This document shows, in pieces, positions 1 to 20,200 of a DNA stretch of 64,000 nt. The notes under the pieces are model-generated. The model had not been told where the DNA came from. It made no database searches and saw only the letters and a program-made list of their open reading frames with translations. Position 1 is the first letter of the stretch. Each line of letters begins with the position of its first letter. The DNA comes from Frankiales bacterium (GTDB lineage Bacteria; Actinomycetota; Actinomycetes; JAFAQI01), in contig JAICXQ010000001.1 in assembly GCA_025980325.1 (NCBI GenBank), positions 12,232-76,231 on the forward strand. Reading direction: 5' to 3'. A program made the translations under genes and the position numbers.

Positions 1-653
1 TATTTCCTACGAGCGCGCATTACACCGCGCTCGGCCACCTGCACCGCTGCCAGGACATTGATGGGTCATGCCCGATCTCGTATTCGGGCTCGCCCCTTGC
101 TGTCGACTTCGGCGAGGAGGACAACGAGTCCGTCGCGCTGGTGGTAAGCGCTACTCCGGATACCCGGGCCGCCACCCGTCGCATTCCCGTCATCGGCGGC
201 CGAACGCTGCTAACACTGCGTGGCACCCTCGACGAGGTCATCGCTGCCGGTGAACAGTCCGGCGATGCGTGGCTGCGTGTTGTGCTTGCCGAACCCGCCC
301 GGGCAGGACTTGGCGACCTGGTTCGGGAGAAGTTACCGAACGCGCTCGAGGTCCAGCTCGATGAGGAGCACAAGGTGCGACCCGGTCGAGCCCGGTCCGA
401 CCGGCCCAACCGGGCCGATCGGACACCGCAGGAGCTTTTCGCTGACTATCTCACCGAGTGCAACATCGACGATGCGCGGCTGCCGAAGTTATTCGCCCAG
501 CTGCTCGACGAAGTCACCGCGGCGCCCGACGCACCGGCAGAAGCGATCGTGCCCGTACAGGTGCCGGCGGCGGAGAAATCTGAGGCGCCGAAGCCACGAC
601 GGCGGCGCAAAGCCGACGTCGAATCCCAACCGGTACCGGCTGAGGAGAACTGA
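1..653 (+). CDS. sbcD: Exonuclease SbcD (Mre11-like), C-terminal part; the gene starts upstream of the window
   Basis: Frame 3 is open from the window edge to 653. The conserved phosphoesterase motif YTALGHLH is present (SbcD/Mre11 motif 'YVALGHIH'). The TGA stop overlaps the ATG of the next gene (ATGA at 651-655). Confidence 0.7.
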   Translation, partial: FPTSAHYTALGHLHRCQDIDGSCPISYSGSPLAVDFGEEDNESVALVVSATPDTRAATRRIPVIGGRTLLTLRGTLDEVIAAGEQSGDAWLRVVLAEPARAGLGDLVREKLPNALEVQLDEEHKVRPGRARSDRPNRADRTPQELFADYLTECNIDDARLPKLFAQLLDEVTAAPDAPAEAIVPVQVPAAEKSEAPKPRRRRKADVESQPVPAEEN

Positions 654-3091
654 TGCGGCCGCTTCGCCTGATGCTCGAGGGATTCGGTAGCTACCGAGAG
701 CCGACCGATATCGACTTTAACGATGTGAACTTCTTCGCCCTCGTGGGTCCGACGGGGTCCGGGAAGAGCACCGTAATCGATGGATTGTGCTTCGCCCTGT
801 ACGGCACCGTGCCCCGTTGGGGCAAGGAGAACGTCGTGAAATACGCGCTCGCCCCCTCGGCGAATTCGTGCCGAGTTTGCCTCGTGTTCGAAGTCGGTGG
901 TGCGCGCTACGCCGCAGCGCGGTTGCTCACTCGCGACGGCAAAGGCGTTGTGCATACGAAGGAAGCCCGGCTAGATCGCATTGACACGGCCGTGCCGGCC
1001 GCCGGTGATTTGACGGCCGTACTTGAAGCCAGCGTCGAACAATTGGCGGAGGGCGACCAGGTGACTTCTGCCGTTCGGACTCTGCTGGGTTTGAGCTATG
1101 AGCACTTCACGCAGTGCGTGCTCCTGCCGCAAGGGAAGTTTGCTGAGTTCCTACAGGCCAGTCCCGGTGACCGTCAGAACCTGCTCGTTCAGCTGCTCGC
1201 GTTCGGGGTTTACGAGCAGATCGGCCAGCTTGCCCGGCAACGCGCCCAGCTCGCCGAGAACAACCGCAAGCTTCTCGCGAATCAACGCGATGAACTTGCC
1301 GATGCGACCGCCGAAGCCGAAGATCTCGTCCGGGCGCGGGTCGACGAGATCACCGAACTGGCGGGAACGGTTGAGACGCAGCTGGCGGGTCTTGACGCCG
1401 CTCGCGTAAAGGCGCTAGACGCCGCGACCTCGGCGGGCGCCAACCGCACAGCAAGCACGCAACTTGGCGGCGTTCGCATTCCGAAAGGCGTTTCTGACCT
1501 GGCTGTCCGTATAAAGGGCGCCGACGAACAGTTGGTAGCTACACGAGCTCGGCGGGACACGGCGGAAACTGTTGAGGAGGAAGCTCGACTGGCTCGGGTC
1601 GAGCTGGGGGACGTCGAGCGATACCAGCGATGGCAAGCGGCGTACGCCGGGCGCGCCGAGGCGGAGCAGACGCTGGGAGTCCAGCAGGAGACGGTCGAGC
1701 ATCTCCGTGGCGCTGAAGACCGGCTTCGGGAGAACGTCACTGCAGCCGAGGCAGCAGTCATCGACACGGAAACCGCGTTAGCTGCCGCTCAGACCGCACA
1801 CGCAGCTGCCGCAGTCGCGGCAACGCTGAACGTCGGGGACGACTGCCCCGTGTGCGAGCAGAAGGTGATCACTCTTCCGCATCGCGAACCTCCCACCGAT
1901 CTGAAGATGGCAGCGGCGGCCGTGACTGCGGAGAAGGCCGAGCTGAAGAAGGCCAATACTGCAGCGCAGCACGCCGCTGTGAAGGTGGCGGCAGCTCAGA
2001 CCGCGGTCGACGTGACAAGTGCTGCTCTTGCCGCACATCTTGCAGCTCTAGATGGCGCGCCGTCGAGAGCGGATATAGACGTGGCGTTGGCCGCAATCGC
2101 GGCAGCCGATGCGGCGTTGTTGGCGGCTGGTGAGGACGCCCGCCGCGCTCGCTCGGCCGTGTCCGCAGCTGAGACCGCGCGCTCGAAGCTCGATCGCGCC
2201 GAGCAAGACTCTCGTGTCGAGCTCAACGCCGCCCGGGATGCTCTCGCTGCTCTCAGACCGCCGGCGCTTGCCGGCACCAATCTGGCCAATGACTGGGACG
2301 TCCTGCTCACATGGGCGGCTGAGGAACGCAGCCGCCGCGAAGCGGCGCAGCCTGAGCTCGATGGAATCGCGACCGCGGCAGGGAGGGAGGTCGCCGGGAT
2401 CGAAGACGTCGTCATCGACCTACTCGCCGAGCATGGCATCAACGACGTTGCGGACGTCGCTGCAGCTCCTGTTGCGTTGGCGACGTTACGAGCGCGTGCC
2501 GAAGCCGACCTCGCGAGCGTCAAGGCGAGCCGGGCGCGGGCGGCGCAGTTGGACCGCCGCATCACCGCGGCTGCGGACGAAGCCACAGTTGCGCGCATGG
2601 TGGGCGATCTGCTCAAGGCCTCCCAGTTCGAGCGGTGGCTGTGCGGTGAGGCGCTCGACTCACTTGTTACCGAAGCGTCGGCCACGCTGATGGAATTGTC
2701 CGGCGGACAGTACGAGCTCGACCGCACCGACCGCAACGAGTTCGTCGTCATCGACTACAACGATGCGGGCACGCAGCGTCCAGTCCACACGCTCTCGGGC
2801 GGCGAAACTTTCCAGGCGTCGCTCGCGCTTGCCCTCGCGTTGTCCCGGCAGGTTGTTGGACTCTCGGCTGGGATGAGAGACCTCGATTCGATGTTCCTCG
2901 ACGAGGGGTTCGGGACCCTCGACGAAACCACACTCGACACCGTAGCCAGCACCCTCGAGCGCCTGGCTGCGGACAAGGACAGAATGGTTGGCGTCATCAC
3001 ACATGTGCCCGCGCTCGCTGAACGCGTACCGGTGCAGTTCGTGGTCAGTCGCGACGGAACTTCCTCGCACGTGCGCAGGGTCCAGGTGTGA
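653..3091 (+). CDS. sbcC: SbcC/Rad50-like SMC-type ATPase (812 aa)
   Basis: N-terminal Walker A GPTGSGKST; central Ala/Glu/Arg-rich coiled coil with a CPVC zinc-hook motif (about nt 1845); C-terminal ABC signature LSGGETFQASLALALA and Walker B MFLDEGFGTLD. Translationally coupled to both neighbours. Confidence 0.85.
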   Translation: MRPLRLMLEGFGSYREPTDIDFNDVNFFALVGPTGSGKSTVIDGLCFALYGTVPRWGKENVVKYALAPSANSCRVCLVFEVGGARYAAARLLTRDGKGVVHTKEARLDRIDTAVPAAGDLTAVLEASVEQLAEGDQVTSAVRTLLGLSYEHFTQCVLLPQGKFAEFLQASPGDRQNLLVQLLAFGVYEQIGQLARQRAQLAENNRKLLANQRDELADATAEAEDLVRARVDEITELAGTVETQLAGLDAARVKALDAATSAGANRTASTQLGGVRIPKGVSDLAVRIKGADEQLVATRARRDTAETVEEEARLARVELGDVERYQRWQAAYAGRAEAEQTLGVQQETVEHLRGAEDRLRENVTAAEAAVIDTETALAAAQTAHAAAAVAATLNVGDDCPVCEQKVITLPHREPPTDLKMAAAAVTAEKAELKKANTAAQHAAVKVAAAQTAVDVTSAALAAHLAALDGAPSRADIDVALAAIAAADAALLAAGEDARRARSAVSAAETARSKLDRAEQDSRVELNAARDALAALRPPALAGTNLANDWDVLLTWAAEERSRREAAQPELDGIATAAGREVAGIEDVVIDLLAEHGINDVADVAAAPVALATLRARAEADLASVKASRARAAQLDRRITAAADEATVARMVGDLLKASQFERWLCGEALDSLVTEASATLMELSGGQYELDRTDRNEFVVIDYNDAGTQRPVHTLSGGETFQASLALALALSRQVVGLSAGMRDLDSMFLDEGFGTLDETTLDTVASTLERLAADKDRMVGVITHVPALAERVPVQFVVSRDGTSSHVRRVQV

Positions 3092-4056
3092 CGGCCCAGG
3101 CGGCGCCGCCTAGCGGATTCTCCGTAGACCCGTGGGACCCGGGGTACGGCCTGGCGTTCAGCAGTGACCTCGATGGCGGTGCGTTGGAGGAATCGAGCGC
3201 GCAGCTCAACCTCGCGGTGGAAATGCCGGCAGACGCGTGGGCTCCCGTCGATCCTGACCCGACCGTCGCGGTGCCGGACACGATCCTGTTCCTCGACGGC
3301 GTGCGCCGCATCGACGCTCGGGTCTGGGTCTACGGGAGTGACCCGCAGCCGGCGCCCGGCATCGCAGCGTCTTTCGCGGCGGGACTCGTCTGCTGCGACG
3401 GCGCGGCTCGCATTGTGGACGTTAGGGTCGGCCGCGGCCTCTTCACCGCCGCATCCGTGGCCGACATCGTTACCCGACAGGCGACTTATCCCGTTCGCGC
3501 CGCAACCGGAGGCAGTCTTGACGAGTTGTCGCTAGCCCTACAGCAGCGGCTTGCCGAGGCAGAAGTTGGGCTCGCGCTCGACTTTCGCGCTACCCACGCC
3601 ATCGGTGACGACCTGCTCGTCGTAGACGGTCCGTTACGCGGACGGACGCACCTGCCTCGCACAGTCGGCTACGTCAAGACTCACCACACTGCCTACCTAC
3701 CTGCGACACAAGCGGCAGTAGTAGCCGAGCTCGCGCCCGGTCAGCGGACCCCAGTGTTTTCAATGGGCACATCCTGGATCCGAAATTCTTGGTATCTGAG
3801 ACTGCCCGGCGCATCGGGTGCCCCGTGGTCCGGGGTCGTCCGCGTCGAGTGTTCTGCCGACCTCTCGCCAGTCGAGGCGGTACGGCTCGCTGCGGTCACC
3901 GCCACTGTCCTGCCGCCGCTAGCCAGCGCACCGCACAAGGACCCACGCGCGCCGCAGAACCTCGTGCCGATTGGCGGACTCGAGCGTGAGTTGCGGCATC
4001 GGCTGGGTGACACGCGACTGCTTTATCGAGCGTTGCGAGCCGCGGCAGCAGGCTAG
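3088..4056 (+). CDS. NurA-like (RNase H-fold) nuclease-domain protein, putative (322 aa)
   Basis: The GTG start overlaps the sbcC stop (GTGA at 3088-3091). Contains the motifs ILFLDGVRRID and LLVVDGPLRG, reminiscent of the paired DG(S)/DGsL acidic motifs of NurA 5'-3' nucleases. The ORF is protein-like, but the function is inferred from motifs only. Confidence 0.45.
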   Translation: MTAQAAPPSGFSVDPWDPGYGLAFSSDLDGGALEESSAQLNLAVEMPADAWAPVDPDPTVAVPDTILFLDGVRRIDARVWVYGSDPQPAPGIAASFAAGLVCCDGAARIVDVRVGRGLFTAASVADIVTRQATYPVRAATGGSLDELSLALQQRLAEAEVGLALDFRATHAIGDDLLVVDGPLRGRTHLPRTVGYVKTHHTAYLPATQAAVVAELAPGQRTPVFSMGTSWIRNSWYLRLPGASGAPWSGVVRVECSADLSPVEAVRLAAVTATVLPPLASAPHKDPRAPQNLVPIGGLERELRHRLGDTRLLYRALRAAAAG

Positions 4057-4117
4057 TGCCCCCGCGGAGCTCGGCACGCGGCGTGACAATCCCCGCCGGC
4101 GCGCGAGGCAAGGAATT

Positions 4118-7100
4118 GTGGACCGCACTGCGCCTTCGGCTCCGCTTCCGCCCCAGATGGGGGACGTCGCGAGCAAATTGTCAGTGGTGCGGCCGATACT
4201 CGCGTGCATGTTGACCGGCAATCAGCCACGGCCGCGGTGGACTCGGCTGGATGCCGCGCTGGCGCCGTTCGACGCGCTCTCGGTCGAGGTCTTGGCGCGG
4301 GCCGCGCTCGACTCGCCGTCGGCATCGCACTGGGCTGCCGCAACGGGCCTCGTGTGGGCGCGAGCGCTGGCACGGTCACCGCGCGGCATAGTCGTCGCCT
4401 CCGCTGAGGATCTGCCGAAGCTGGTCGGCGCGGGGGTAGCTGCATGGCCGGAAGCGCGCAACATGTCTGACTGGTGGCCTTCGGATCCCCGACTGGTCGT
4501 GAGTGCGCGAGTGCGGAACGGTCGGGTCAGGCTTCACCCCGGTCGGGTTGTTGAACCCCTGCGATTAGTACGTCGGTTGGAAAGAATCGCCTTTGCAACC
4601 GATGACGCGGTCTACGCGCGTCACGGGTTTCGGACCTCAGACCTGGTAGAGGTGGGGCTGCGCCTCGCGGATCTGCAAGTGACGGGGCTTGCGCCCGCGT
4701 GGTCACAAACGGCGCTACCCGAGCCGCCCTTGTTACGTATCCCGCGAGCGTCACCCTTCGACGTAGCGGAGCAGGTGCGCGCAATCCCGCCTTCGGTCAC
4801 AAGTGAGGAGATCACGGCTGCCGCGCGGTTGCGGGAGCGCGACCTCGTCGCCGATGCCTCGGCACTATGCACGGACCCGACGGCCGCCGGGGCTGCGTGT
4901 GAGTGGGCGACAACGGCGGTCCGTCAAGCGCATCAACCCGGCTGTTTAGCTGTCACCACCGATGCTGGCTTGGTGCCGGTTCCGGCGTCGCTAGTGCTGG
5001 AAGCGCTTGGAATAGCAACGGGCCGCCTGGCTATCGAGGCGGCGGGCGAGCCGTGGGTGCGTGAAAGATGGGCATACGCCAGCACGGCGGACCTCTGGGA
5101 AGTGCTCGGCTTGCCGTTCGTGGATGACGAGACTCCCATCCCAGTCGGCGGGATGCTGCGGATCGCGGAACGGCATCTCGCGAGCATCGACGTGGTCGCC
5201 GAACTTGCACCCGCCTCTGTACAGCCGGCTGCGGAGAACGCCGTTCATCGAGCGGCGTCGCGTGCAACCACGGAAGTGGCCGACGCAACAGGTGTTGCGG
5301 CGGACATGTCCGCCGACATGCTTCGGCTTGTGCTGATCGACGCGGCCGGTCGACTAGAACGGCTGAGTGGGGGAGCGGTCGTCGCAGTCACAGCCGACGA
5401 ATTCACACGAGTCTTGTCGGAGGCTGCAGACGGCCCAAACGGTCAAGATGAAGCGTGGGACTTCCTCCTTGATCTGCAGCGCGTTCCGCGAACCGTCGAG
5501 CTACATCCACCGGATCTCGTAGATGCGTGGCGGCATTGGCGTGAACATGGGTGGCTAGTCCCTCCCGAGCTAGACGTAGACGCCGTACCTGATGCCGCGG
5601 TCATGTTCGCCTGGCTCGCGCACGACCCGTCGTGGCCCGCGGCTGCGCAATGGGATGCGACCGAGCGAATCCTTGATGCAGCAAGACTGCCGCCGAAGGT
5701 CGCCTTCTGGGCACGGGATCTCGACGATCGTGGCGTTGTGACATTGTGGGCTCCGCCCGCGATGACAGGCGGCCGGCCGACTTGTTACGCGCTGCATCCG
5801 GACGGGCTCGTCATCGGTGCGACTGGTGATCTGCCCGGTGCTGGAATCCCCGACGGTGCCGGAGCTCTTCCGATCGTCGTCGCCACAGCTCTGCGCGATG
5901 CGCTGTTCGCCCGTCCTGCAGCGGTCGCAGCACTGAATCTTGACCCTTTGACACCGAAGCGAGTCCTGGTGGGCGTCGACCTCGACGAAGGTGACGGCAT
6001 CGCAGTCGCGACCGCGGACGGGCTGCCCCCACTGATCCTTCTCGGGCCGATGCTGCTCGCTGCAACGGCAGCCGATCCCATGGCGATGCACCATACGCTC
6101 GGTGCCGCGCTCTCAACTGCCCTGCGCCTCGGCTGCGGAGACGTCGATATGGACGCATTTTCTGCAGCGTGGAACGCCGGCCCCGTTGCGCTGGTAGCGG
6201 GAGTGCGCGCGGGCCCCGTCGACCGGTCTCCGCGGCGAGAGTTGCCACGCACGCGCGCCGCGCGGATGCGGGCGCACCAGGCGCATGCAGCCGCAGTGCG
6301 TGCCGCCGGTGGGGACGTGCCACCGGGTGAGCTGACGGGCGACGAGGCCGCCGAAATATGTCAGCGTCTGCTGATCCCTGCTGCAGACCGAGCACTACGG
6401 GACGCAATCGCTAGGTTCGATCGCGATCTGCTCCTCCGCGCAGCGGCGACATGGGCCGATGAGGCACACGCTCACCGTGCGCAGTTGCGAGACAGGCTCG
6501 ATCTAGCGCTTGCTGCGCCTTGGCGTGACGAGGTGCTAGCCGACCCGAGCGACTACGAGGACGACCCGGACCAAACAAGGCCGTTGCATGTGCTTATTGA
6601 AACCGCAATCGCGGCGAATCCGGCTCCCGAATCCGCGGGTATCGCTCCAGATCGCATTGACCTGGCTCGACTTGCCGAACAGGCGCGACTTGTCGCGTGG
6701 GTCGGCGCAGCATCAGACGGGTACCGCCGTGGTCTCAACACGCTAACTGTCACGGTGGGACCAGGTGCCCTCACCGGCGTGTCCATGCCGGCATCGGACC
6801 CAAGCATCGAGGCAACCGTTGATATGGCTGCATACGTTGCCGCTTCTAATGTCGATGCGCTCGCCGCTGCGGCCGATGAAGCTCGCCTGCAGGATCCGGA
6901 CGAGGTTGAGCGACTCCTCGCGGAGGCGGACGGAACTGAACGGCCTTTCGAGCGGTTCACCGACTTGCCGGACCTGCCTGGGTCGCTACGAAGTCTTGAC
7001 CAAACGATGCGAGTCACTCTCGGCGCTGGGTTCGGCGCCATCTCGGCAGTTCTTCGGACCTGTATCGATATGGCGCCGCCACCGATCGGCGTGCTATCAG

Positions 7101-7876
7101 AGCCCATTCCCGTCGCAACACTTCGCGACGACATCGCGGGGTGGTCAAGACTGCCGCCGGAGGAAATCACGGCCGCGATTCGACTACTCACTGTCGACAG
7201 CGACCTCGCTCGTGGCGATCGCACCGGTGCGTGGGAGGTCGAACGGCGCGACGCGAGGCTCAATGCACGGCCCCTCATTGCTGTCACCGGCGGGCTGCTC
7301 GTCCTGCCGCACCTGTGCACGACCGCTCGCGACATCTTCCTCGGCCGACTTGCTGACGGCCGACTTCCCTGGCCCGTCCGTGACGAACGTCTGCGGCTCG
7401 CGGTCGACGCGTTTCGCCGCCATGTCACCGCGCAGCTCGAGCGCACGGTCGGCGAGAAACTCTCTGAGCTCGGCTTGCCGCATGTGATGAACGTCAAGGA
7501 GAACCGAGCCGCTGCTCTTGGGATCCCCAATCTGCCCGGCGAGATCGACGCACTCGCCGTCGAGGCCGCCTCGGAAACGCTTTGGGTGATCGAGGTCAAG
7601 CATGCCCGTCGTGCCGTGAGCGCGAGCGAGATCCGCGAACGGGTGAGGAAATTCATCGAGCCAAACGGTTACATAGACGTACTGCTCCGCAAGACAGCTG
7701 TCATCGCTCCGCATGCCTCAGCGGCTGCCGCACTGGCCGGCGCCATCGAAGAGCGACCTTGGCGGGTCGTTCCGCTCATGGTCACCGCAGCCGTCGAGCC
7801 CGCTGCGTTCGCGTCGTCGCGGCGCGTGCAATTCGCGACACCGAGAACATTGGCGGTCGCGCTGCAAGCGACCTGA
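4118..7876 (+). CDS. Large Ala-rich hypothetical protein (about 1250 aa) with a C-terminal PD-(D/E)xK nuclease-like motif
   Basis: The long ORF (3971-7876) overlaps the previous gene. The likely start is GTG 4118 (aagga RBS) or ATG 4157. No Walker A/P-loop was found. The C-terminus carries GEIDALAVEAASETLWVIEVKH (D..E.K, restriction-endonuclease-like core). Same strand, 62 nt after the NurA-like gene. Confidence 0.55.
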   Translation: MDRTAPSAPLPPQMGDVASKLSVVRPILACMLTGNQPRPRWTRLDAALAPFDALSVEVLARAALDSPSASHWAAATGLVWARALARSPRGIVVASAEDLPKLVGAGVAAWPEARNMSDWWPSDPRLVVSARVRNGRVRLHPGRVVEPLRLVRRLERIAFATDDAVYARHGFRTSDLVEVGLRLADLQVTGLAPAWSQTALPEPPLLRIPRASPFDVAEQVRAIPPSVTSEEITAAARLRERDLVADASALCTDPTAAGAACEWATTAVRQAHQPGCLAVTTDAGLVPVPASLVLEALGIATGRLAIEAAGEPWVRERWAYASTADLWEVLGLPFVDDETPIPVGGMLRIAERHLASIDVVAELAPASVQPAAENAVHRAASRATTEVADATGVAADMSADMLRLVLIDAAGRLERLSGGAVVAVTADEFTRVLSEAADGPNGQDEAWDFLLDLQRVPRTVELHPPDLVDAWRHWREHGWLVPPELDVDAVPDAAVMFAWLAHDPSWPAAAQWDATERILDAARLPPKVAFWARDLDDRGVVTLWAPPAMTGGRPTCYALHPDGLVIGATGDLPGAGIPDGAGALPIVVATALRDALFARPAAVAALNLDPLTPKRVLVGVDLDEGDGIAVATADGLPPLILLGPMLLAATAADPMAMHHTLGAALSTALRLGCGDVDMDAFSAAWNAGPVALVAGVRAGPVDRSPRRELPRTRAARMRAHQAHAAAVRAAGGDVPPGELTGDEAAEICQRLLIPAADRALRDAIARFDRDLLLRAAATWADEAHAHRAQLRDRLDLALAAPWRDEVLADPSDYEDDPDQTRPLHVLIETAIAANPAPESAGIAPDRIDLARLAEQARLVAWVGAASDGYRRGLNTLTVTVGPGALTGVSMPASDPSIEATVDMAAYVAASNVDALAAAADEARLQDPDEVERLLAEADGTERPFERFTDLPDLPGSLRSLDQTMRVTLGAGFGAISAVLRTCIDMAPPPIGVLSEPIPVATLRDDIAGWSRLPPEEITAAIRLLTVDSDLARGDRTGAWEVERRDARLNARPLIAVTGGLLVLPHLCTTARDIFLGRLADGRLPWPVRDERLRLAVDAFRRHVTAQLERTVGEKLSELGLPHVMNVKENRAAALGIPNLPGEIDALAVEAASETLWVIEVKHARRAVSASEIRERVRKFIEPNGYIDVLLRKTAVIAPHASAAAALAGAIEERPWRVVPLMVTAAVEPAAFASSRRVQFATPRTLAVALQAT

Positions 7877-9422: not shown

Positions 9423-10631
9423 TCAGGGAGTGCGGGCCGGGGCGAGCCCCTGCCCGCAGGACGCGCGGCCCGCGACGTGTAAGTCAATGGAAAGTGTCCC
9501 GGTCTGCCATGCGATCGCGCCGGGCGAGCCGTTTCTACTGTGCGACCGCCCCGGCATAAGGTTGTCGAGGACAGCCGCAGTTTCCTGCAGGTGCTCCGGA
9601 AACAGGTGGCCGTAGGTGTCCATCGTCTCGACGATGGACTTGTGGCCGAGCCGGGCCTGGATGACCTTTGGGTGGAGCCCGGCGGCGATTAGGGACGACG
9701 CGTAGGTGTGCCGCAGCGCGTGCATGCCGTACTCCTGCGGGAGGCCGGCGCGGCGTAGTGCGGGTTTCCAGACAGAGTCGTTGAACGACCCGCGGCGCCA
9801 GACTTCGCCGCGCGGGTTGGTGAACAGCAGGCCGTCCTCGCCAGTGCCGTACCGCTCGATGTGTGCGGCGAGGGCGTCGACGACGAACTTCGGCAACGGC
9901 AGCAATCGGCGCGACGACGGGGTCTTGAGCCGGTCGCTGATGACAGGAACCCCGCCGCCCATCGGTGTCTTGGCCTGCGCCTCGACCCACAGCTCGCGGC
10001 GCAGGAAGTTGACCGCTCGCAGCCGCACTCCGAGCAGCTCGCCCTGGCGCATGCCGGTGCCGACGCCGAGCGCAAGGATCGCGTAGTGGTCCGGCCGGGC
10101 CTCGAGCAGCAAGGACCCGACCTGCTCCGGCGTGAGGATCGACAGCTTCGACGGCGGGATTGCAGGCAGGTTGATCTTGAAGCACGGCGTCGTCGTGAGC
10201 AGCCGGTCATACACCGCCGAGCGCAGCATCATCGCGAGCAGCGCGTAGATGTGCCGGACCGTGCGCGGCGCGAGTCCCTTGCCGACGAGCGTGCCGACGA
10301 ACGCGTTGATGTCCGTGCGCCGCAGCGACGACATCGCGCGGCCGCCGAGGTGGGGGAGGACCTGGCACTTCAAGTAGGTGTTGTAGCCGGCGAGGGTGGA
10401 CGGCTCGACCCGCAGCGACGCGAGCCACGCCGGTGCGTACTCGGCGATGGTTATCCGCGCGTCGCCGCGGAACACGTACGTGCCGTCGATCGCGGCGACC
10501 TGCGCGCGGGCGAGCGCCTGCTCGGCGAGCTTCAGAGTGGAGAACCGCTTGCGGACCATCCGGCCCTCGACGCGGTAGGTGATCTCGTAGGAGAAGCCGC
10601 GCCCGTGGGTGATCTTGCGGGGTCGAGCCAT
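9423..10631 (-). CDS. int: Tyrosine recombinase/phage-type integrase (402 aa)
   Basis: N-terminal SAM-like domain with the catalytic domain carrying the R..HxxR..Y residues (HALRHTYAS, LGHKS, MDTYGHLF). Lies in the lower-GC islet. Confidence 0.9.
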   Translation of the reverse strand: MARPRKITHGRGFSYEITYRVEGRMVRKRFSTLKLAEQALARAQVAAIDGTYVFRGDARITIAEYAPAWLASLRVEPSTLAGYNTYLKCQVLPHLGGRAMSSLRRTDINAFVGTLVGKGLAPRTVRHIYALLAMMLRSAVYDRLLTTTPCFKINLPAIPPSKLSILTPEQVGSLLLEARPDHYAILALGVGTGMRQGELLGVRLRAVNFLRRELWVEAQAKTPMGGGVPVISDRLKTPSSRRLLPLPKFVVDALAAHIERYGTGEDGLLFTNPRGEVWRRGSFNDSVWKPALRRAGLPQEYGMHALRHTYASSLIAAGLHPKVIQARLGHKSIVETMDTYGHLFPEHLQETAAVLDNLMPGRSHSRNGSPGAIAWQTGTLSIDLHVAGRASCGQGLAPARTP

Positions 10632-11241: not shown

Positions 11242-14200
11242 ATGGTCTTCAGGGGGGATGTTCTCGTGATCCGGTCGAGGAAACCGCATTCACGTACAGT
11301 CGCGAATCGCGCCGTCGCACAGGCGATCGGCAAGACTCTTTTGGCCTTCACCGTCGGCGTGTCGGCGACGGTCGTGTCGGCACCGCTCGCCGCCGCGTCC
11401 ATCCCGACCACGGTCCCGCAACTGCAGCCGGTCGACGGCGAATCGCTGGCGGACACGAATAGCGGCGCGGATGCTATCGCTGCATCCGCCACGTCGTCCG
11501 GGTTGACCGAACGGCCGGACACGTGGATGCAGACGAGTCGCACCTTCACCGCCGCAAATGGAATTAACACGACGGTGATCGGTCTCACTCCGCTCAACTA
11601 CCAGGACGCGGGCGCCACGTGGCAGCCGATCGACGACGAGCTCACTGCGGACACGACGACGGGCTATGCGTGGCGTAACACCGCCGACGCCTACAGCGTC
11701 GAGTTCCCGGCGAACCTTCTGTCCGGGCCGATAAGGGTCAGCAACAACGGCGGTTGGGTCGCGTTCCAGATCGCCGGTGCGACCGGCGCAGGTGTGGTGA
11801 GCGGCAACACAATCACGTATGCGAACGCGCTGCCGGGTGTGTCACTGACTTACGCGGCGACTCCGCTCGGGTTGAAGGAGACGATGACGCTGGCGGACGC
11901 GTCGGCCTTGTCCGCGTTTACCGTCGTCGTGACCAGCAGCGACGGGCTGACGACCGCGACCCAGGTCGACGGGAGCACCGGCTTCGTCAACGCGACCGGC
12001 GATCTGATCGCGTCACTCGCGAAGCCGTGGATCACCGACGCGAACCAGGACATGAGCGGCCTCGACGACGCACTCTCGTCGTCGTTGACGCCGGACGGGA
12101 CGAACGCGTGGCTGGACGCGCTCACGGTGTCCGCGACCTGGTTGACCGCACCGAGCCGCTCGTGGCCGGTCACCATCGACCCCACGCTGAAGACCGAGCA
12201 GGACTTCTCGACCGACTGCCTGATGTTCTCCGGTCACCCGACGAGTGGTGTGTGCGCTCAGAATCCGGCCGGCGTGGGTTACCACGCCGACGATTCGCTC
12301 ATCCGCCGCGACGTCATGGAGTTCTCGGTGTCGTCGATCCCGTCCTCCGCCACGGTCACGGACTCGGAGCTCGAGCTCGACGAGGGGCTCACCGCCTATG
12401 GCCCGGTCGAGCTCCAGATCTACCGGAACGATCAGAGCTTCAGTGCGGTGAACGCCACCTGGGACGACGCCGATGCGCATACGGGAACGGCCTGGATCTC
12501 GACCGGGCGTGGCGGCGACCCGGTCGGCAGCGCTTTGATATCGACTCCGTTCGGGTGCGACCCCACCGGCCCGAGTTGCGCCGGCGTGAAGACGTTCAAC
12601 ATCGCCGGCGCGACCCAGAACTGGGTGAACGGGACGTGGGCGAATACCGGCATCCTCTTGCGCGAACAGGTCGAGACCAATGACGGCGTCGTGCAGTTCA
12701 ACGGCAGCAATTCCCCGACCGGCCCGCCGAACATCGTGGTGACGTGGGATCGCAACCCTGACCAGCCGACCCTCGTATCGCCCGCCTCGGGTGCGACCGG
12801 CCTGTCGCCGAGCCCATCGCTGCAGGCGAACGTCACCGACCCGGATGGCGGCGACCTGTACGCGAGGTTCTTCGTCCGCACGCACGGATCGAGCACCTGG
12901 GACATTGCGAACGGCGTCATCATGCCGGCACCGAACGCCGACGACTCGAACGGCGTGGCCTCCGGCGCGACCGTGACGTACTCGCCGTCCCTCTCGCCCG
13001 GCGTGACCTACGACTGGACCGCACAGACGTGGGACGGGACGCTGTTCTCGACGACACCGACGGCGCAGTCGTTCACGGTCGCGCCGCTGCCGCCGCAGCC
13101 GACCGTGTCGAGCTCGACTCATCCGAGCCCCGGCACCTGGTACACCGCTCGTAACGCGACGTTGAACTGGAGCGCGGGCAGCGGGATGACGGGATACTCC
13201 TACGTTCTCGATCAGCCCGGGTCCGGATCGACCACGTGTCCGAGCACGACACCGGATACGACATCGGAAGGCACCGCGACCACTGTTTCGTACGCGAACC
13301 TCGCCGACGGCATCTACTGCTTCCATGTGCGCGCCCAGAACATCTCCGGTTGGGGGCCGGCGTCCAACACCTTCGAGATCGACATCGACGGCACGACACC
13401 GGGCGCGCCGAGCGCAGTGACCTCGACCCCGGCACCGAACAGCAACGGATGGATCACCTCCGGCAACTTCACAATGAACTGGTCCGTGCCGACGCAGACG
13501 CAGGTCTCGGGGATCGCCGGCTACTCGTACGTCCTCGACCAGCCGGCGATCGGCAACACCTGCCCGCCGACGATTCCCGACACGACATCGGAAGGCGCCG
13601 CCGCGTCCGTGAGCTACACGGGCAAGGCAGACGGTGCGTGGTGCTTCCACGTCCGCGCCGAGAGCGGCGCCGGGCTGTGGGGCCCGGCGGCGCACTACAC
13701 GGTCAGCATCGACGCAACGCCGCTCACGGCACCGCAAAACCTCACCTCGAACCCGGCGCCGAACGCGACCGGATGGCTGACGATGAACAGCCCCACCATG
13801 ACCTGGTCGGCTCCGGCCAGCACCTCGGGGGTCACCGGTTACTCGTACGGCCCGCTCGATCATCCCGCGTCCGGTTCGACCACCTGTCCGACCACGGCTC
13901 CCGATACGACATCGGAGGGCACGGCCACCAGCGTTTCGTACAGCAATCTCGCCGACGGCATCTCGTGCTTCCACGTCCGCGCAGAGAACGCGGCAGGTGT
14001 CTGGGGTGACACCGCGCACTACACGTTGCGCATCGACAGCGTCGCCCCGACATCGCCGGCGAACCTGACGACGACTCCGTCCGCGGACGGGCTGTCCCAC
14101 GCGACCCGCACCATCGCCGCATCGTGGAGCGCGGGAACCGATGCCACGTCCGGCGTGGCCGGTTACTACTACACGTTCGACAACGTCGCGACCCGTCCCG

Positions 14201-17200
14201 CCAACACGCCGTTGTCTGCGGACACGTTCACGGCGACGACGACGGCGACGCTGTCGAACTCGACGGACGGTGTGTGGTACGTCCATGTGCGCACGATCGA
14301 CGCGGCCGGCAACCTCAGCGGTTACGCCAACTACGGCCCGGTGATTCTCAACAACGTCAGTCCGATCATCAACAAGACGCTCAACACAGCGGCGGCGAAC
14401 GGCTACTACGGGCGCGGCCAGTACCTCCAATACACGGTGACGGTGACCAACCCGTCGACCCTTGCGCCGTCGACGATCACTGGCTTCAGCGACACTCTCC
14501 AGCCGGGTCAGCTCCTGATCGGCACGGACATCCTGCTCAGCCGCTCCGACGACGGAAGTACCGCGGCGCGCCACTGCCTGCGGATCACCGGATCCGAGCA
14601 GTGCACGATCAGCACCGATGGGACGACGATCACGCTGCCGAACTTCACCCTTCCGGCCGGCGTCTCGCTGCAGCTCGTCTACACCACGCTCGCGACCGGG
14701 GTGGAGAACGGCTGCATGATCACGTCGAACACCGCGACCGCAGCCGATGCCGCGGGCAGCGCGACCACGAACCCGGTTTCCGCCACCATCTGTGACACCG
14801 GTCTCGGAATCGAGCCCTGGTGGAGCTATGTCTCGACCGCGGTCGGGCCTCAGTCGACCGCGCAGGTCAACGTCGCCAACGGCAACCTCGTCGTGCAGGC
14901 GACCGACTCCACCCCGATCAACGCGCACGGTCGCCTCGGTTACGTGATCCGCCGTACGTACAACAGCCAGGACACGACCGCGCTCACGCTGCCCGGAAGC
15001 CTCGGCGCGGGCTGGCAACTCAACGTCGGCGCGACCGACGATCTCGCCGGCGCCGGCGTGACGCCGACGAGCCTGTCGGTCCCGACCGCCAACAGCGTCG
15101 CGGCACCGCTGGGGATCACACTTATCGACCGTGACGGCACCAGGCACGTCTTCACCTACCGCAGCGCGAGCGTCGCGATCACGTCGCCGGTCGACGTGAC
15201 CTCACTCGCCGGCGGATCGCCGATCCATCAACTCGTGCCGGTGAACCCGCTGCTGCGTCCGTCGAGCCTGAGCGGGTCGGCAGCCTTCGCCCACGTGTGC
15301 GTCGACGCGACCTACCAAGCACCTGCGGGCGTACACCTCGCATTGTGGCGTTACGTCGGCACCAACGGCAGCACCTGCTCCGCTGCGCTCAATGATTCGA
15401 ACGCGCGGATCCTCGGCTTCACGACGATGCGCCCGGACCGGCTGCGCTCCGAGTTCGACGCCGCCGGTCACCTGCTCGACCTCGTCGACGGTTCCGGCGT
15501 CGACCTCCGCTACGCGTACGGCACGACCGGCGAGCTCAGGTCGATCAGCGAAGCACGTGACTGCACCGGCGCGGTCGGCACCGCGACGTGTCGTGGCGTC
15601 GTCGTCACGTACTCGAGCGACCAGACGAACGCGTGCCCCATTCCGGCCGGCGCGGCGAGCAGCGAGTGCGTCATCGATCCGGCCGGCCGTCGCACGATTT
15701 ACGCGTTCGACAACGCCGTTCCGAAGCATCTGGTCGAGGTCGACAACCCGGACGACAACCCGTCCGGCACCCGGGACCGCTTCCAGTACGCCTATCAGGG
15801 TTTCGGGGCGAGCTGTGGCGCCGCCGCGGCCGGTCAGCTGTGCACCGTCGTCGAACCGCGCTTTGACCCGAAGACCGGTGCTGTGATCAGCACGACGTTC
15901 GGATACACCGCGCAGAGCCCGCTCGGCCTGCCACGCGTCACGTCCATCACCGACCGCCGCCATGTGATGACGACGCTGGCCTACACCGGCGCGCCGTCGA
16001 CCGCTACGACCGTGGACGACAACGGTGAACGGACGAGTTACCTGTCGATCGACTCCAGCGGCCGGGTCGGCGAGGTCGACCAGGGGGCCACCACCGCGAG
16101 CCCGCTGAGCATCACCCGCTACACCTGGGACACCGCAGCCAATCCCTGCACGTACGTCTCCGGCACGGTGCAAGGCACACACACGGCGTGGGCCAGGCCG
16201 GACAACAACCTGTGCCGGGTGACGAGAGCGCACATCAGCGGGGCGTCGGACGAAACCACGTCGTTCGCCTATACCCCGGAAGGGATGCTGCTCACGTCCC
16301 GGCAGGTCATGTCGTCCGGGCCGGACCTCTACCGCACCTACGCTTACGCGACGCAGTATGTCCGCAACGGAAGCGCCACGATCACCGCGACGGACTCGGT
16401 GTCCGGCAGCGGCGACGTCGCCGTCGGCAACCGGTCGAGCGCCATCGGCGACGGTGGCTCGGTGGCCGGCGACTCCTCGGTCGTCTATGCACTGACCGAC
16501 CTCGTCGCAAGCTTGTCACCGCGCGGCAACGTTGCCGGTGCGACGGTTGCCAACTTCCGCACGGATTACACGGTCGCGGACAGCACTGCTGCCGAACCCG
16601 ACGTGAACCCCGGCGGCAACGCCTGCACGGCACGCAACAGCGGCTCGGTCTGCACCGTGTCCGCGCCGTACTCCGGATCCTCCAAGAGCATCACGCAGTA
16701 CGACTACGACAGCTTCGGGCAGAAGGTCAGCGCGACAGTTCCCAAGCTCTCCTACGAAACCCCGCCGAGCGGGCAGACCTACCAGTACACCTACACCTAC
16801 TACGCCGACAGCTCGACCGACCACGAGACGCACAAGACCAGCATGGGCGGATGGCTGGAAGCCGTCACCGACCCGGCCGGCCACTACGTGTTCTTCACCT
16901 ATGACGCGGCCGGCGATCGCACCCGCACGTGGGACCGCAACGCAACCACGGCGAGCGGCGATTCGCTTTCGGCGATGGAGGCGGCGGTCGCGACCGGTTC
17001 CGGGCCGGTCGGCGCTTCGGTGACCTTGTACGCAAACCCGTTCAACTCGATGCCGTGGCGCTACCTGCTCCTCACCGAGGAACCCGTCGGCCCGCTCACG
17101 ACCTATGCGGTCGATGTCGACGGCAACGTGACGGCAATTACGACGAACGCGGGCCACACGACGACACAGACGTTCGACGAAGCGGGCAACCTGCTCACTC

Positions 17201-20200
17201 GTACGACGCCGGCGGAGCCGGGACACCCGACGACGAACACCTACGATGCGTTCGGGAACCTCGCCACGACCACGAGCCCGAACAACGTCGTCACTGCGTA
17301 CCGCTACGACGCACTCAACCGTCGGGTGACGACGTACACCGACCGGGGTAGCGCAAGCAGCGGCACGTCCAACCCGGGCGGCGGCTGCTTCGTGACCGAC
17401 ACCGGTGCGAACGCGGTCCCCGAGTACGCGGTGAACGAGGTCGTCTGCGCCGCTCGTGCGAGCTACGACGAGTTCGGCAACATGGTCTCGAGCACCGACG
17501 GCGCGAACCACACCACGACGTACACGTACGACACCGCGAACCGTCGGGTCGACACGTTGACGCCGCGGACCGACACAGTCAGCTACACCACGCGCACGCT
17601 CTACGACGCCGACGGCGACGCGATCGACACGTGCCCGCCACGCCAGTTCACCGACGGCGGGGCGTCGACGTGCTCCGACACCAGCCCCGGCGTCTACAGC
17701 ACCCATCGAAGCTTCAGTGAAGCGGACCGGTTGCTGACGACGACGACATATCGCGCGCGGCCGACCTCCGTGCACGGCGACCCGGCGAACACGCCGGCAA
17801 CGAGCACCGACACCACGACGTACACGTACGACGCCGACGGCAACCGGACCAGCGTCGCCGACCCCAACAATCATGTGACGACGGACGTGTACGACTTCCT
17901 CGACCGCAAGACCAGCGAGCTGACGCCGCGGACGAGTGGAGTCAACAAGCGCACGGTGTACACGTACGACGCGAACGGCAACGTGCTCAGCACGACCGCG
18001 TCGGGCCTCGCGCCGGTGAACGTCGGGGGCACCCCGCTCAATGTCGGCAGCCCGTACTCCGCGTCGAACCCCTATCCGCTGCCGGCCGACGTGACGACCT
18101 ACAGCTCGATCACACTGACCGGCGGCGCCTGGATCACCGTGCCGGCGAACAGCGCGCCGGCCGCGATCAGCATCACCGTCTCGTCGACCCTGTCGATCTG
18201 CAGCACCTGCGGCATCACTCTCGACGGTGACGGCTGGGCCGGCGGCACCCCGGCGGCAAGCGCCCTGACAACGGACGGATTCACGGTGAGCGGGAGTGGC
18301 AGCGGGCCCGGCGCCGGCGCGGGCGGTACCAGCGCGGCGACGGCCGGCGGTGGCGGCGGAGGCGCCGGCTACTCGGCGGCGGGGACCGACGGCTTCGGTG
18401 GCGGCAGCCCCCTCGGCGGCGCGGGTGGCAACGCCGGCTCGCCGTACGGCGACGCGACCATCGGCGGTGAGACGTCCACTCAAGCCGGCTCGGGCGGCGG
18501 CGCGGGCGGCACGATCGAGCCGTCGACGCTCGGAGGCGTGGGTGGTGCCGGCGGCGGCATCCTGCACGTGACGGCGAACCAGATCATCCTCGACGGTTCG
18601 ATAACGGCACGCGGCGCGAACGGTGCGGACGGCCAGGTCGTCCAAGGCGCGCTCGGTGCGGGTGGCGGCGGTGGCGGCTCGGGTGGCGCGATCTGGCTGA
18701 GCGCCCCGCAGATCATCACCGACTCCGGCTCGATCGGTCACGTCGACGTCAGCGGCGGTGCCGGTGGCAGCGGCACTCCGGGTGGCACTGACGGCTCGGG
18801 CGGCGCGGGTGCGCCGGGTCGGGTCCGGTTCGACACCGACGAGCTCAGCAGCAGCATCGTGACGACCGCCGGGTCGACGCAACGGACGACGTTCGGGCGG
18901 ACCACCGCGTACAGCTACGACTTCGACAACCGGCTCGTCGACACTGTGATCGGCGCGTCGTCGCCGAACGCGGCGGCCGACGGTCCGACCGGCAGCGACG
19001 GCGGGTCCAACGTGCGCACCCGACTCGTCTACGACGACGAGGGGAACGTCGTGGGCCGCTTCGACCCGCGTGCCTTTGCGGCGTCGGTGACGAGCCCGGA
19101 CGTGCGGTACGAGTCGGTTGCGGTCTACGACGCCGACCATCGGCTGACCGACGTCTACCAGCCGTACAGCGACTCGAGTGGCGCGTCCGATCCGAACGGT
19201 GCCCCGTCGCAGTGTCCGGACGCGGCCAGTCTCGGGATCAGCGCCTATCAAGGCCTGACCGGTGTGCACGTCTGTCGTCTGCACTACGGGTACGACCACG
19301 ACGGCAACCGCACACTGACGCAGCTGCCGACGTACGACAGCAGCGACACGACCCGGGTGTACACGGCTGCTTACACTCCGGACGACCTGCTCGCGTCGAC
19401 GAGTGTGCCGGACCCGTCGGTGACGAGTCATGCGGCTGCACTCCGTGCGGAGGCATACACCTATGACGGTGCCGGCCGCCGCCTGACCGACCAGGAGTTG
19501 CCGGACACCGGTGGCCCGACGACCACGACGACGTACACCGCTGACGGCTTGGTCGCCACGGTGACGCCGCCGACGGGCGGCGCGAGCCATCTGACGACGT
19601 ACGGGTACGACCCGAACGGCGCGCAGGTGAGTGTGACGATGCAACAGGACGCGTCGACCACCCGGACGAGCTTCACCGACTACAACAGCGACGGCAGCGT
19701 CTATGCGAACGTCGACCCGGCCGGAAATACGACGAGCTACACCTATGACGCGGCGGGCAACCAGATCGCGGTCTATGGCCCGTCGGCGAATGCCGGCGAT
19801 GCGACCAACCCGAACCACCTGCCGACGGTGTATTCGTACTTCGACGACAACTTGCTCGCGACGACCTCGACGCCGACGGTGTCCAGTGGTGCGACTCGCC
19901 GCCTGACGACGTACGGCTACAACCTGGGCGGCGACAAGACCAGCGTCGACGTCGACTACACCAACGCGAGCGGGACAGTGACGACCGACGGTGCTCCGCA
20001 GCGTTTCGGGTACTACCCGGACGGGCGGATTGAGTCGTCAACCGGCCGCAGCGGCGGGTCGCAGGCGTTCAGCTACGACGCGGCCGGGCACCCGTTGTCG
20101 AGCAGCGACACGGCGAACGGCGACACGGTCACGACCGCCGCGACGTATTACCTGGACAACGCCATCCGCACGGTGAGCGAGTCGGGGACTGTGGTTCCGA

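Follow-up and report, generated by a model that had tools for sequence, protein, structure and literature searches.

A bacterial-type NurA nuclease gene overlaps sbcC, and the order herA-sbcD-sbcC-nurA recurs in related Actinomycetota

We analyzed a stretch of 64,000 nucleotides from a Frankiales bacterium (contig JAICXQ010000001.1, positions 12,232 to 76,231; hereafter "the window") and find that a gene near its left end, which begins within the stop codon of sbcC, encodes a genuine NurA nuclease of the bacterial type represented in Deinococcus and Thermotoga. The family membership of the protein, its fold, the conservation of its catalytic residues, the synteny of its gene and the overlaps between neighboring genes were all observed; its dependence on HerA, its cooperation with SbcCD and its role in the cell are what we infer from them. 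The reading that we favor, and to which we give a probability of roughly 0.75, is that the gene specifies a catalytically competent bacterial NurA that carries out HerA-driven resection of DNA ends, working with SbcCD and coupled to sbcC.

Identity and fold of the protein

The assignment is carried by profile and structure comparisons. A profile of 101 sequences, which are representatives of clusters formed at 50% identity and extend down to 36% identity to the window protein, matched two NurA structures in the PDB, covering nearly the whole of the window protein, those of Deinococcus radiodurans (7f6d_H; E = 1.1e-52) and Thermotoga maritima (TM1739, 1zup_A; E = 4.8e-19). A profile of only 35 close homologs recovered the same two structures (E = 1.5e-29 and 1.8e-6, respectively). 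The structure that AlphaFold2 (AF2) predicted from the 101-sequence alignment has a predicted local distance difference test score (pLDDT) of 93.4 and a predicted template modeling score (pTM) of 0.91; the model from the shallow alignment of 35 close homologs was poor (pLDDT 55), which the diverse alignment remedied. Foldseek matches place in the model an RNase H-like fold with the topology of NurA. In the comparison with the PDB, the best match was D. radiodurans NurA (DrNurA; 7f6d_G, E = 9e-18, template modeling (TM) score 0.70), and the five best chains, 7f6d_G, 1zup_A, 1zup_B, 2ygk and 8wfd_G, are all NurA or NurA-like. The E-values were 2e-14 for T. maritima NurA (TmNurA, 1zup), 5e-6 for Sulfolobus solfataricus NurA (SsoNurA, 2ygk) and 1e-4 for TdpB (8wfd_G). 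The NurA of Pyrococcus furiosus ranks further down the list, and it is not until E > 0.07 that unrelated proteins with an RNase H fold are met.

A first-pass annotation, made from the letters of the DNA and a list of open reading frames (ORFs), had called the protein NurA-like because of two Asp-Gly motifs, and had named a lack of profile or structural similarity to NurA as the outcome that would overturn the call. Both kinds of similarity were sought and found, including the structural match to Sulfolobus NurA that it had proposed as a check, and the call is borne out. A further check that it had proposed, a search with the Pfam NurA model (PF09376), gave a divided result: the window protein alone scores 17.2 bits (E = 0.0038), below the cutoff of 21, whereas the family profile matches the solved NurAs. 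NCBIfam and PADLOC scans of the sequence returned no match. Several close homologs (70–100% identity) already carry a precomputed PF09376 match, and UniRef gives the Oryzihumus leptocrescens homolog the name "NurA domain-containing protein". Judged by these comparisons, the weakness of Pfam detection is limited to the level of the single sequence, and a family profile detects NurA.

Could the protein instead be a different or inactive RNase H-fold protein, such as one like Argonaute/PIWI or EndoV or the relic of a transposase, that merely resembles NurA? The sub-threshold Pfam match of the single sequence would fit, as would the appearance of Archaeoglobus fulgidus Argonaute in the Foldseek list, albeit far down (E = 0.17). 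However, the profile matches to NurA are nearly full length, NurA and NurA-like chains make up the five best structural matches and, as described below, every catalytic residue is invariant. We consider a non-NurA or inactive identity to be effectively excluded.

The ORF is a real gene, with more than 6,000 homologs at E ≤ 1e-3; when 1.84 billion cluster representatives were searched with a profile, 1,650 clusters (50% identity) passed the same threshold, 447 of them at E ≤ 1e-30. The best 120 homologs listed are 70–100% identical to the window protein. The pair of Asp-Gly motifs is also unlikely to have arisen by chance, because the pattern [ILVFM]{3}DG is rare, with six matches in all long open frames of the window (approximately 47,000 residues), and because the nurA frame is the only one in which two matches are spaced by 90–130 residues.

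Active site and N terminus

The two motifs on which the first-pass annotation relied, ILFLDGVRRID and LLVVDGPLRG, occupy residues 66–76 and 176–185 of the ORF (Table 1). Their acidic residues, D70 and D180, had been equated with those of NurA motifs I and II, and a catalytic role for them is supported, as neither varies in the alignment and each falls on a catalytic Asp of the solved NurAs. Beyond these two, a Glu (E159), a Lys (K197) and an Arg (R287) make up the rest of the active site. Residues that are invariant in the 101 sequences include D70, G71, R74, E159, D180, G181, K197, R252, E254, R287, P289 and N291, and D285 and E299 are nearly so. To relate these positions to published mutants, the numbering of chain 7f6d_H was taken to be that of native DrNurA plus 20, an offset obtained by counting along the alignment against the published mutant numbers. 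The DrNurA mutants D53A, K201A and R309A are each nuclease-dead (PMC9960219); D58, E116 and D133 are catalytic in SsoNurA, of which the K202A mutant has no activity (PMC3326311). The window NurA is predicted by these alignments to be catalytically competent, with D70, E159 and D180 as a metal-binding triad and with K197 and R287 holding the scissile phosphate.

The first-pass annotation had also remarked that the canonical Ser after each Asp-Gly is replaced. It read DGV and DGP correctly, but these are not deviant, since the solved bacterial NurAs have DGK and DGP. In the alignment of the profile to the PDB, the motifs are VVDGKPR and LQDGPVR in the Deinococcus protein and FVDGKRR and VKDGPAA in that of Thermotoga. 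As far as these sequences go, the absence of Ser is normal for NurA of the bacterial type.

GTG 3088 is the sole in-frame start 5′ of the conserved NurA N terminus. Near this end, a short strand in the model is joined to a motif whose form across the alignment is W-x-P-x-[YF]-G. W16 is invariant in one alignment (A3) and nearly invariant in another (A2), and P18 is nearly invariant in both. In a HMMER comparison of the first 80 residues, taken as a profile, with the PDB, the motif I region was the only part that aligned to 7f6d_H; the pin segment did not. The F11–L22 segment is a candidate counterpart of residues 1–15 of DrNurA, which contain a dimerization strand, W8 and a pin-like motif.

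Conservation of the herA-sbcD-sbcC-nurA cluster

Relatives occur in at least 598 candidate stretches of a collection of species-representative genomes. From such genomes we took 80 related loci (cited by L numbers where needed), and further contigs were added by exact protein look-up. Nearly all come from Actinomycetota, among them Streptosporangiaceae, Nonomuraea, Actinomadura, Micromonospora, Dactylosporangium, Pseudonocardiaceae, Frankiaceae and one member of the Acidimicrobiales. In every scored locus (81 of 81), sbcC lies directly 5′ of nurA. Where upstream DNA extends to at least 5.6 kb (75 loci), herA, sbcD, sbcC and nurA follow one another in this order on one strand in 67 cases; the HerA translocase is thus encoded with NurA in relatives, herA itself lying outside the window. 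Metagenomic contigs that are 95.8% identical to window positions 1–7854 have herA directly upstream of sbcD. Gene junctions in the cluster loci overlap or nearly abut, and median identities across the loci are 65% for HerA, 59% for NurA, 54% for SbcD and 49% for SbcC.

The embedding of the nurA GTG start in the sbcC stop codon, first noted from the letters alone, is plainly visible in the window (GTGA), and an overlap of this form, NTGA, is present in 54 of the 69 loci in which the end of sbcC could be placed. Since the overlap recurs, it supports coupling of nurA translation to that of sbcC. The further suggestion that NurA is made stoichiometrically with SbcC does not follow, as an overlap of start and stop is evidence of coupling but not of stoichiometry. 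The partner that NurA would be expected to contact physically is, by homology, HerA and not SbcC; the NurA:HerA ratio in archaeal complexes is 2:6, as cited in PMC9960219.

The sbcC-nurA pair persists where herA is displaced or broken. In seven loci from metagenome-assembled genomes (MAGs) of uncultured Actinomycetota or Actinomycetes (L006, L008, L011, L016, L017, L018 and L020), 0.7–4.3 kb of unrelated DNA lies between sbcD and sbcC, and sbcC-nurA is intact. Among the ORFs scanned in this gap are those for a luciferase-like monooxygenase, for a DUF899 protein and for a protein with a weak match to ZIP transporters. No herA is found upstream of sbcD in these seven loci, where MFS-transporter and DUF1345 genes are present instead. 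Because the pair stays together where sbcD and herA are separated from it, sbcC-nurA is the tightest link of the cluster.

One complete herA-sbcD-sbcC-nurA cluster, whose NurA is 59% identical to that of the window, is in a MAG labeled "Candidatus Melainabacteria" (L026; CAWACW010000012.1). As all other loci are from Actinomycetota, this could be an error of binning or labeling or a case of horizontal transfer.

The cluster gene directly upstream of sbcD has no Pfam match. In Oryzihumus, the product of the gene 5′ of sbcD matches D. radiodurans HerA (DrHerA; 7f6d_B) over nearly its whole length (E = 2.3e-144). Residues 102–105 of this HerA (L001:4502-6343) are D-V-F-L, compared with D-V-E-D in DrHerA. 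Of the three acidic residues that DrHerA requires for NurA binding (D78, E80 and D81), only D78 is kept, E80 and D81 being replaced by Phe and Leu. Judging from these residues, the interface between HerA and NurA may be less ionic in this clade.

A proposed role in DNA end resection

How might these proteins work together? In the reading we favor, a NurA dimer would dock on the hexameric HerA translocase, by homology to the D. radiodurans complex (PMC9960219), and HerA would pump duplex DNA toward NurA. The strands would part at the N-terminal pin of NurA, for which W16-x-P-x-Y-G is a candidate that does not align to the DrNurA pin, and cleavage of the 5′ strand at the metal site (D70/E159/D180) would leave a 3′ tail on which recombination can act. 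SbcCD probably acts first, opening or cleaning blocked or hairpin DNA ends before HerA and NurA resect them; co-transcription and coupled translation suggest this order.

Several observations weigh against this reading. The single sequence falls below the Pfam cutoff and is missed by NCBIfam, as described above. The window begins inside sbcD, so that herA is off-window and not visible there, and in 8 of the 75 loci herA is not adjacent to the other genes. In the nearest relatives of the window, the contigs with 95.8% identity, herA is frameshifted (L084:4271-6243; also L085 and L086). Near L084:5716, 37 nucleotides that encode the conserved sequence VDLHNLPDRAQ are absent relative to L087 and Oryzihumus, and this deletion splits HerA into ORFs of 487 and 172 amino acids, leaving sbcD, sbcC and nurA intact. 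The three contigs are identical over the herA region and so represent one population. Finally, deletion of nurA-herA in D. radiodurans does not cause sensitivity to damage and instead raises resistance by approximately 10-fold (PMC9960219). Since this knockout is not damage-sensitive, a repair role of bacterial NurA-HerA is unsettled.

Some of these same observations bear on a different arrangement, in which NurA has become an added 5′–3′ nuclease of the SbcCD complex in this lineage and HerA is not needed. The link between sbcC and nurA is the most stable of the cluster, being present in all scored loci and marked by the NTGA overlap in most; in seven of the eight loci in which herA is not adjacent, unrelated genes part sbcD from sbcC and sbcC-nurA is intact; and the nearest relatives of the window have a frameshift in herA. 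However, HerA is better conserved than the other three proteins of the cluster, end resection by DrNurA depends on HerA translocation (PMC9960219), and a herA that is not adjacent may sit elsewhere in the genome. We therefore regard a HerA-independent NurA as distinctly improbable, and HerA-driven resection remains the reading we favor.

More tentatively, it is possible that many Actinomycetota encode a four-protein Mre11/Rad50/HerA/NurA machine in one coupled operon with the archaeal order, perhaps with a hand-off of DNA ends from SbcC to NurA. If such a machine exists, cooperation between HerA-NurA and SbcCD would be genetically testable in the culturable genera Nonomuraea, Micromonospora and Actinomadura.

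Flanking genes and a possible role in defense

Nothing is conserved 3′ of nurA across the loci, and no tRNA, terminator or promoter pattern was found near the 3′ end of the gene. In the window, nurA is followed immediately by an ORF of approximately 1,239 amino acids (4157–7873, + strand) that has no Pfam match and a negligible PADLOC match. This ORF has counterparts only in the nearest relatives, with 94% identity in L084; the 80 genome loci all lack it. By eye, the C terminus of its product contains a PD-(D/E)xK-like pattern, EIDALAVE...VIEVKH. Farther downstream are a tyrosine integrase (9423–10631, − strand; Phage_integrase, E = 2e-20) and, after it, a 3,719-amino acid RHS-repeat protein (11242–22401, + strand; RHS_repeat, DUF6531). 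No tRNA gene is present within the 64-kb window. The region 3′ of nurA looks like a variable or mobile island.

The flanks were also compared among 16 Nonomuraea loci (L028–L077; positions 1–4300 and 11000 to the end). Whereas the four-gene core aligns at the DNA level in all of them, the 4.3 kb 5′ of herA is almost never common to two species, and the downstream flank is common to only 8 of the 16. In Nonomuraea, the cluster is at the edge of hypervariable DNA.

In two lineages, herA is adjoined by a trio of genes for a TerB_N/TerB/TerB_C protein, a BrxC/BrxD-like ATPase and a DEAD/Helicase_C helicase (L084:1-4175, − strand; L088:1-4248, + strand). One lineage has the trio oriented divergently from herA and the other has it in the same direction; the remaining loci, approximately 85, do not have it. 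Directly after nurA, both L087 (11179–12243, + strand) and L088 (10997–12163, − strand), which represent two lineages, have a gene for a HIRAN-domain protein, the two versions of which are 42% identical, and in L087 a gene for a SNF2-family helicase follows it. We rejected the trio and the HIRAN protein as conserved partners, as they occur in only a few of approximately 90 loci.

These flanks raise the question of whether the module acts mainly in defense, with SbcCD and HerA-NurA destroying incoming linear or hairpin DNA and not repairing the chromosome. Such a role would fit the high variability of the flanks, even among the 16 Nonomuraea species, and the defense-like or mobile neighbors: the TerB/BrxC-BrxD-like/DEAD trio beside herA (L084–86 and L088), GmrSD_N and NOV_C in Oryzihumus, and the HIRAN, SNF2, integrase and RHS toxin genes. 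It would also fit the presence of HerA-family ATPases in several anti-phage systems (PDB and NCBIfam matches) and the lack of damage sensitivity of the Deinococcus nurA-herA knockouts. However, NurA has no PADLOC match, and Oryzihumus HerA, so close to repair-type DrHerA, matches anti-phage HerAs only at E of about 1e-3. The TerB trio and the HIRAN neighbors are confined to a few loci, and relatives extend over the at least 598 candidate stretches described above.

The PADLOC matches that bear on this possibility are weak cross-matches of SbcC to mad3 (E = 1e-27) and of Oryzihumus HerA to mad8 (E = 3e-9), which are consistent with generic ATPase similarity. Detection of the MADS system requires MAD6–8, and its operon includes restriction-modification-like components. 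MAD6 and MAD7 were unmatched among the proteins scanned and no restriction-modification-like MADS components were found among the genes scanned, and we rejected membership in MADS. Taken with the points above, we think it unlikely that defense is the main function, and we continue to favor resection of DNA ends by HerA-NurA with SbcCD.

Upstream genes in the window

The left end of the window cuts sbcD, of which the 3′ part remains; in a tblastn comparison, residues 213–390 of Oryzihumus SbcD align to window positions 3–536 with 75% identity. The stop codon of sbcD and the start codon of sbcC share one base (TGATG). SbcC contains a Walker A motif at residues 32–39, a CPVC zinc hook at 398–401, an LSGG signature at 714 and a DEGF Walker B motif at 750.

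Table 1. Coordinates of nurA, its conserved elements and the genes upstream (window positions)
Feature	Position	Strand	Basis
nurA (bacterial-type NurA nuclease, 322 amino acids)	3088–4056	+	GTG start; profile vs PDB, AF2 model, Foldseek
GTGA, nurA start over sbcC stop	3088–3091	+	GTG 3088–3090, TGA 3089–3091, read from sequence
N-terminal strand and W-x-P-x-Y-G motif (F11–L22)	3118–3153	+	W16/P18 conservation; model strand at residues 10–13
D70 codon, motif I catalytic Asp	3295–3297	+	aligns with 7f6d_H D73 = DrNurA D53; Sso equivalent D58
E159 codon, catalytic Glu in helix alpha-1	3562–3564	+	aligns with DrNurA LQDEQKL and TmNurA RSLEIE; SsoNurA E116 counterpart
D180 codon, motif II catalytic Asp	3625–3627	+	aligns with DrNurA LVLQDGPVR and TmNurA LIVKDGPAA; SsoNurA D133 counterpart
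K197 codon, phosphate-contacting Lys	3676–3678	+	aligns with 7f6d_H K221 = DrNurA K201
R287 codon, in invariant KDPRAPQNL motif	3946–3948	+	aligns with 7f6d_H R329 = DrNurA R309
sbcD 3′ part (Mre11-type nuclease subunit), cut by left end of window	3–653	+	Pfam SbcD_C, E = 3.5e-8
sbcD/sbcC junction	642–655	+	GAGGAG Shine-Dalgarno-like 642–647; sbcD TGA 651–653; sbcC ATG 653–655
sbcC (Rad50-type ATPase, 812 amino acids)	653–3091	+	Pfam AAA_23, SMC_N, SbcC_Walker_B; NCBIfam TIGR00618, E = 9e-78

Comparison with known systems

Taken alone, nurA is unremarkable: its nuclease family is known, and close homologs have already been annotated as NurA-domain proteins in databases. The value of the gene is in its context: the order herA-sbcD-sbcC-nurA recurs across many actinobacterial genera and mirrors an archaeal operon. 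We found no description of the actinobacterial four-gene cluster in the literature searched, coverage of which was partial. In that literature, a bacterial link between HerA/NurA and SbcCD is described only for Oceanithermus and is unresolved for Deinococcus, and the biological role of bacterial NurA-HerA is disputed.

The bacterial clade of NurA contains two relatives with solved structures, one of which is biochemically characterized. This is D. radiodurans NurA (DR_0836; 7F6D chains G/H), which works with HerA and has its family, fold and catalytic residues in common with the window NurA, including the KD.RAPQNL C-terminal motif and the DGP form of motif II, although the two proteins are only approximately 25% identical. 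DrHerA is approximately 50% identical to the HerA of relatives of the window. Gene order differs: in Deinococcus nurA is beside herA, whereas in the window lineage nurA follows sbcC and herA precedes sbcD. In Deinococcus, sbcCD is located away from nurA-herA. A connection of Deinococcus SbcCD with HerA-NurA is said to have "remained to be uncovered" (PMC4663267). The second structure, T. maritima TM1739 (1ZUP), is 23% identical to the window NurA, and its FVDGKRR, VKDGPAA and PRLPENILPI motifs align with those of the window protein.

A more distant likeness is to TdpAB (8WFD), a HerA/NurA-like DNA-sensing complex. Its TdpB subunit has a NurA-like fold (TM score 0.45, 14% identity) and has no match to the window NurA at the sequence level.

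In thermophilic archaea, the operon order is herA-mre11-rad50-nurA. The four functions encoded in Sulfolobus and Pyrococcus are those of the actinobacterial cluster, and their order is alike. The genes of this operon are listed in the sequence herA-mre11-rad50-nurA and are essential in archaea (PMC4351679). SsoNurA (2YGK) has the same active site as the window NurA (D58/E116/D133 and K202) at an identity of approximately 10%. Archaeal NurAs have extra N- and C-terminal helical extensions and are without the bacterial pin-like motif (PMC9960219), and the SbcC and SbcD of the window lineage score as bacterial SbcCD and not as archaeal Rad50 and Mre11.

A bacterial parallel in gene content is the nurA-hepA(herA)-sbcD-sbcC locus of Oceanithermus profundus, which its authors read as an archaeal-like architecture for double-strand-break repair (PMC5448004). 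In this member of the Thermales, which belong to another phylum, as in the Actinomycetota described here, HerA and NurA are linked to SbcCD, but the order differs in that nurA-herA comes first, and the linkage was noted for one organism.

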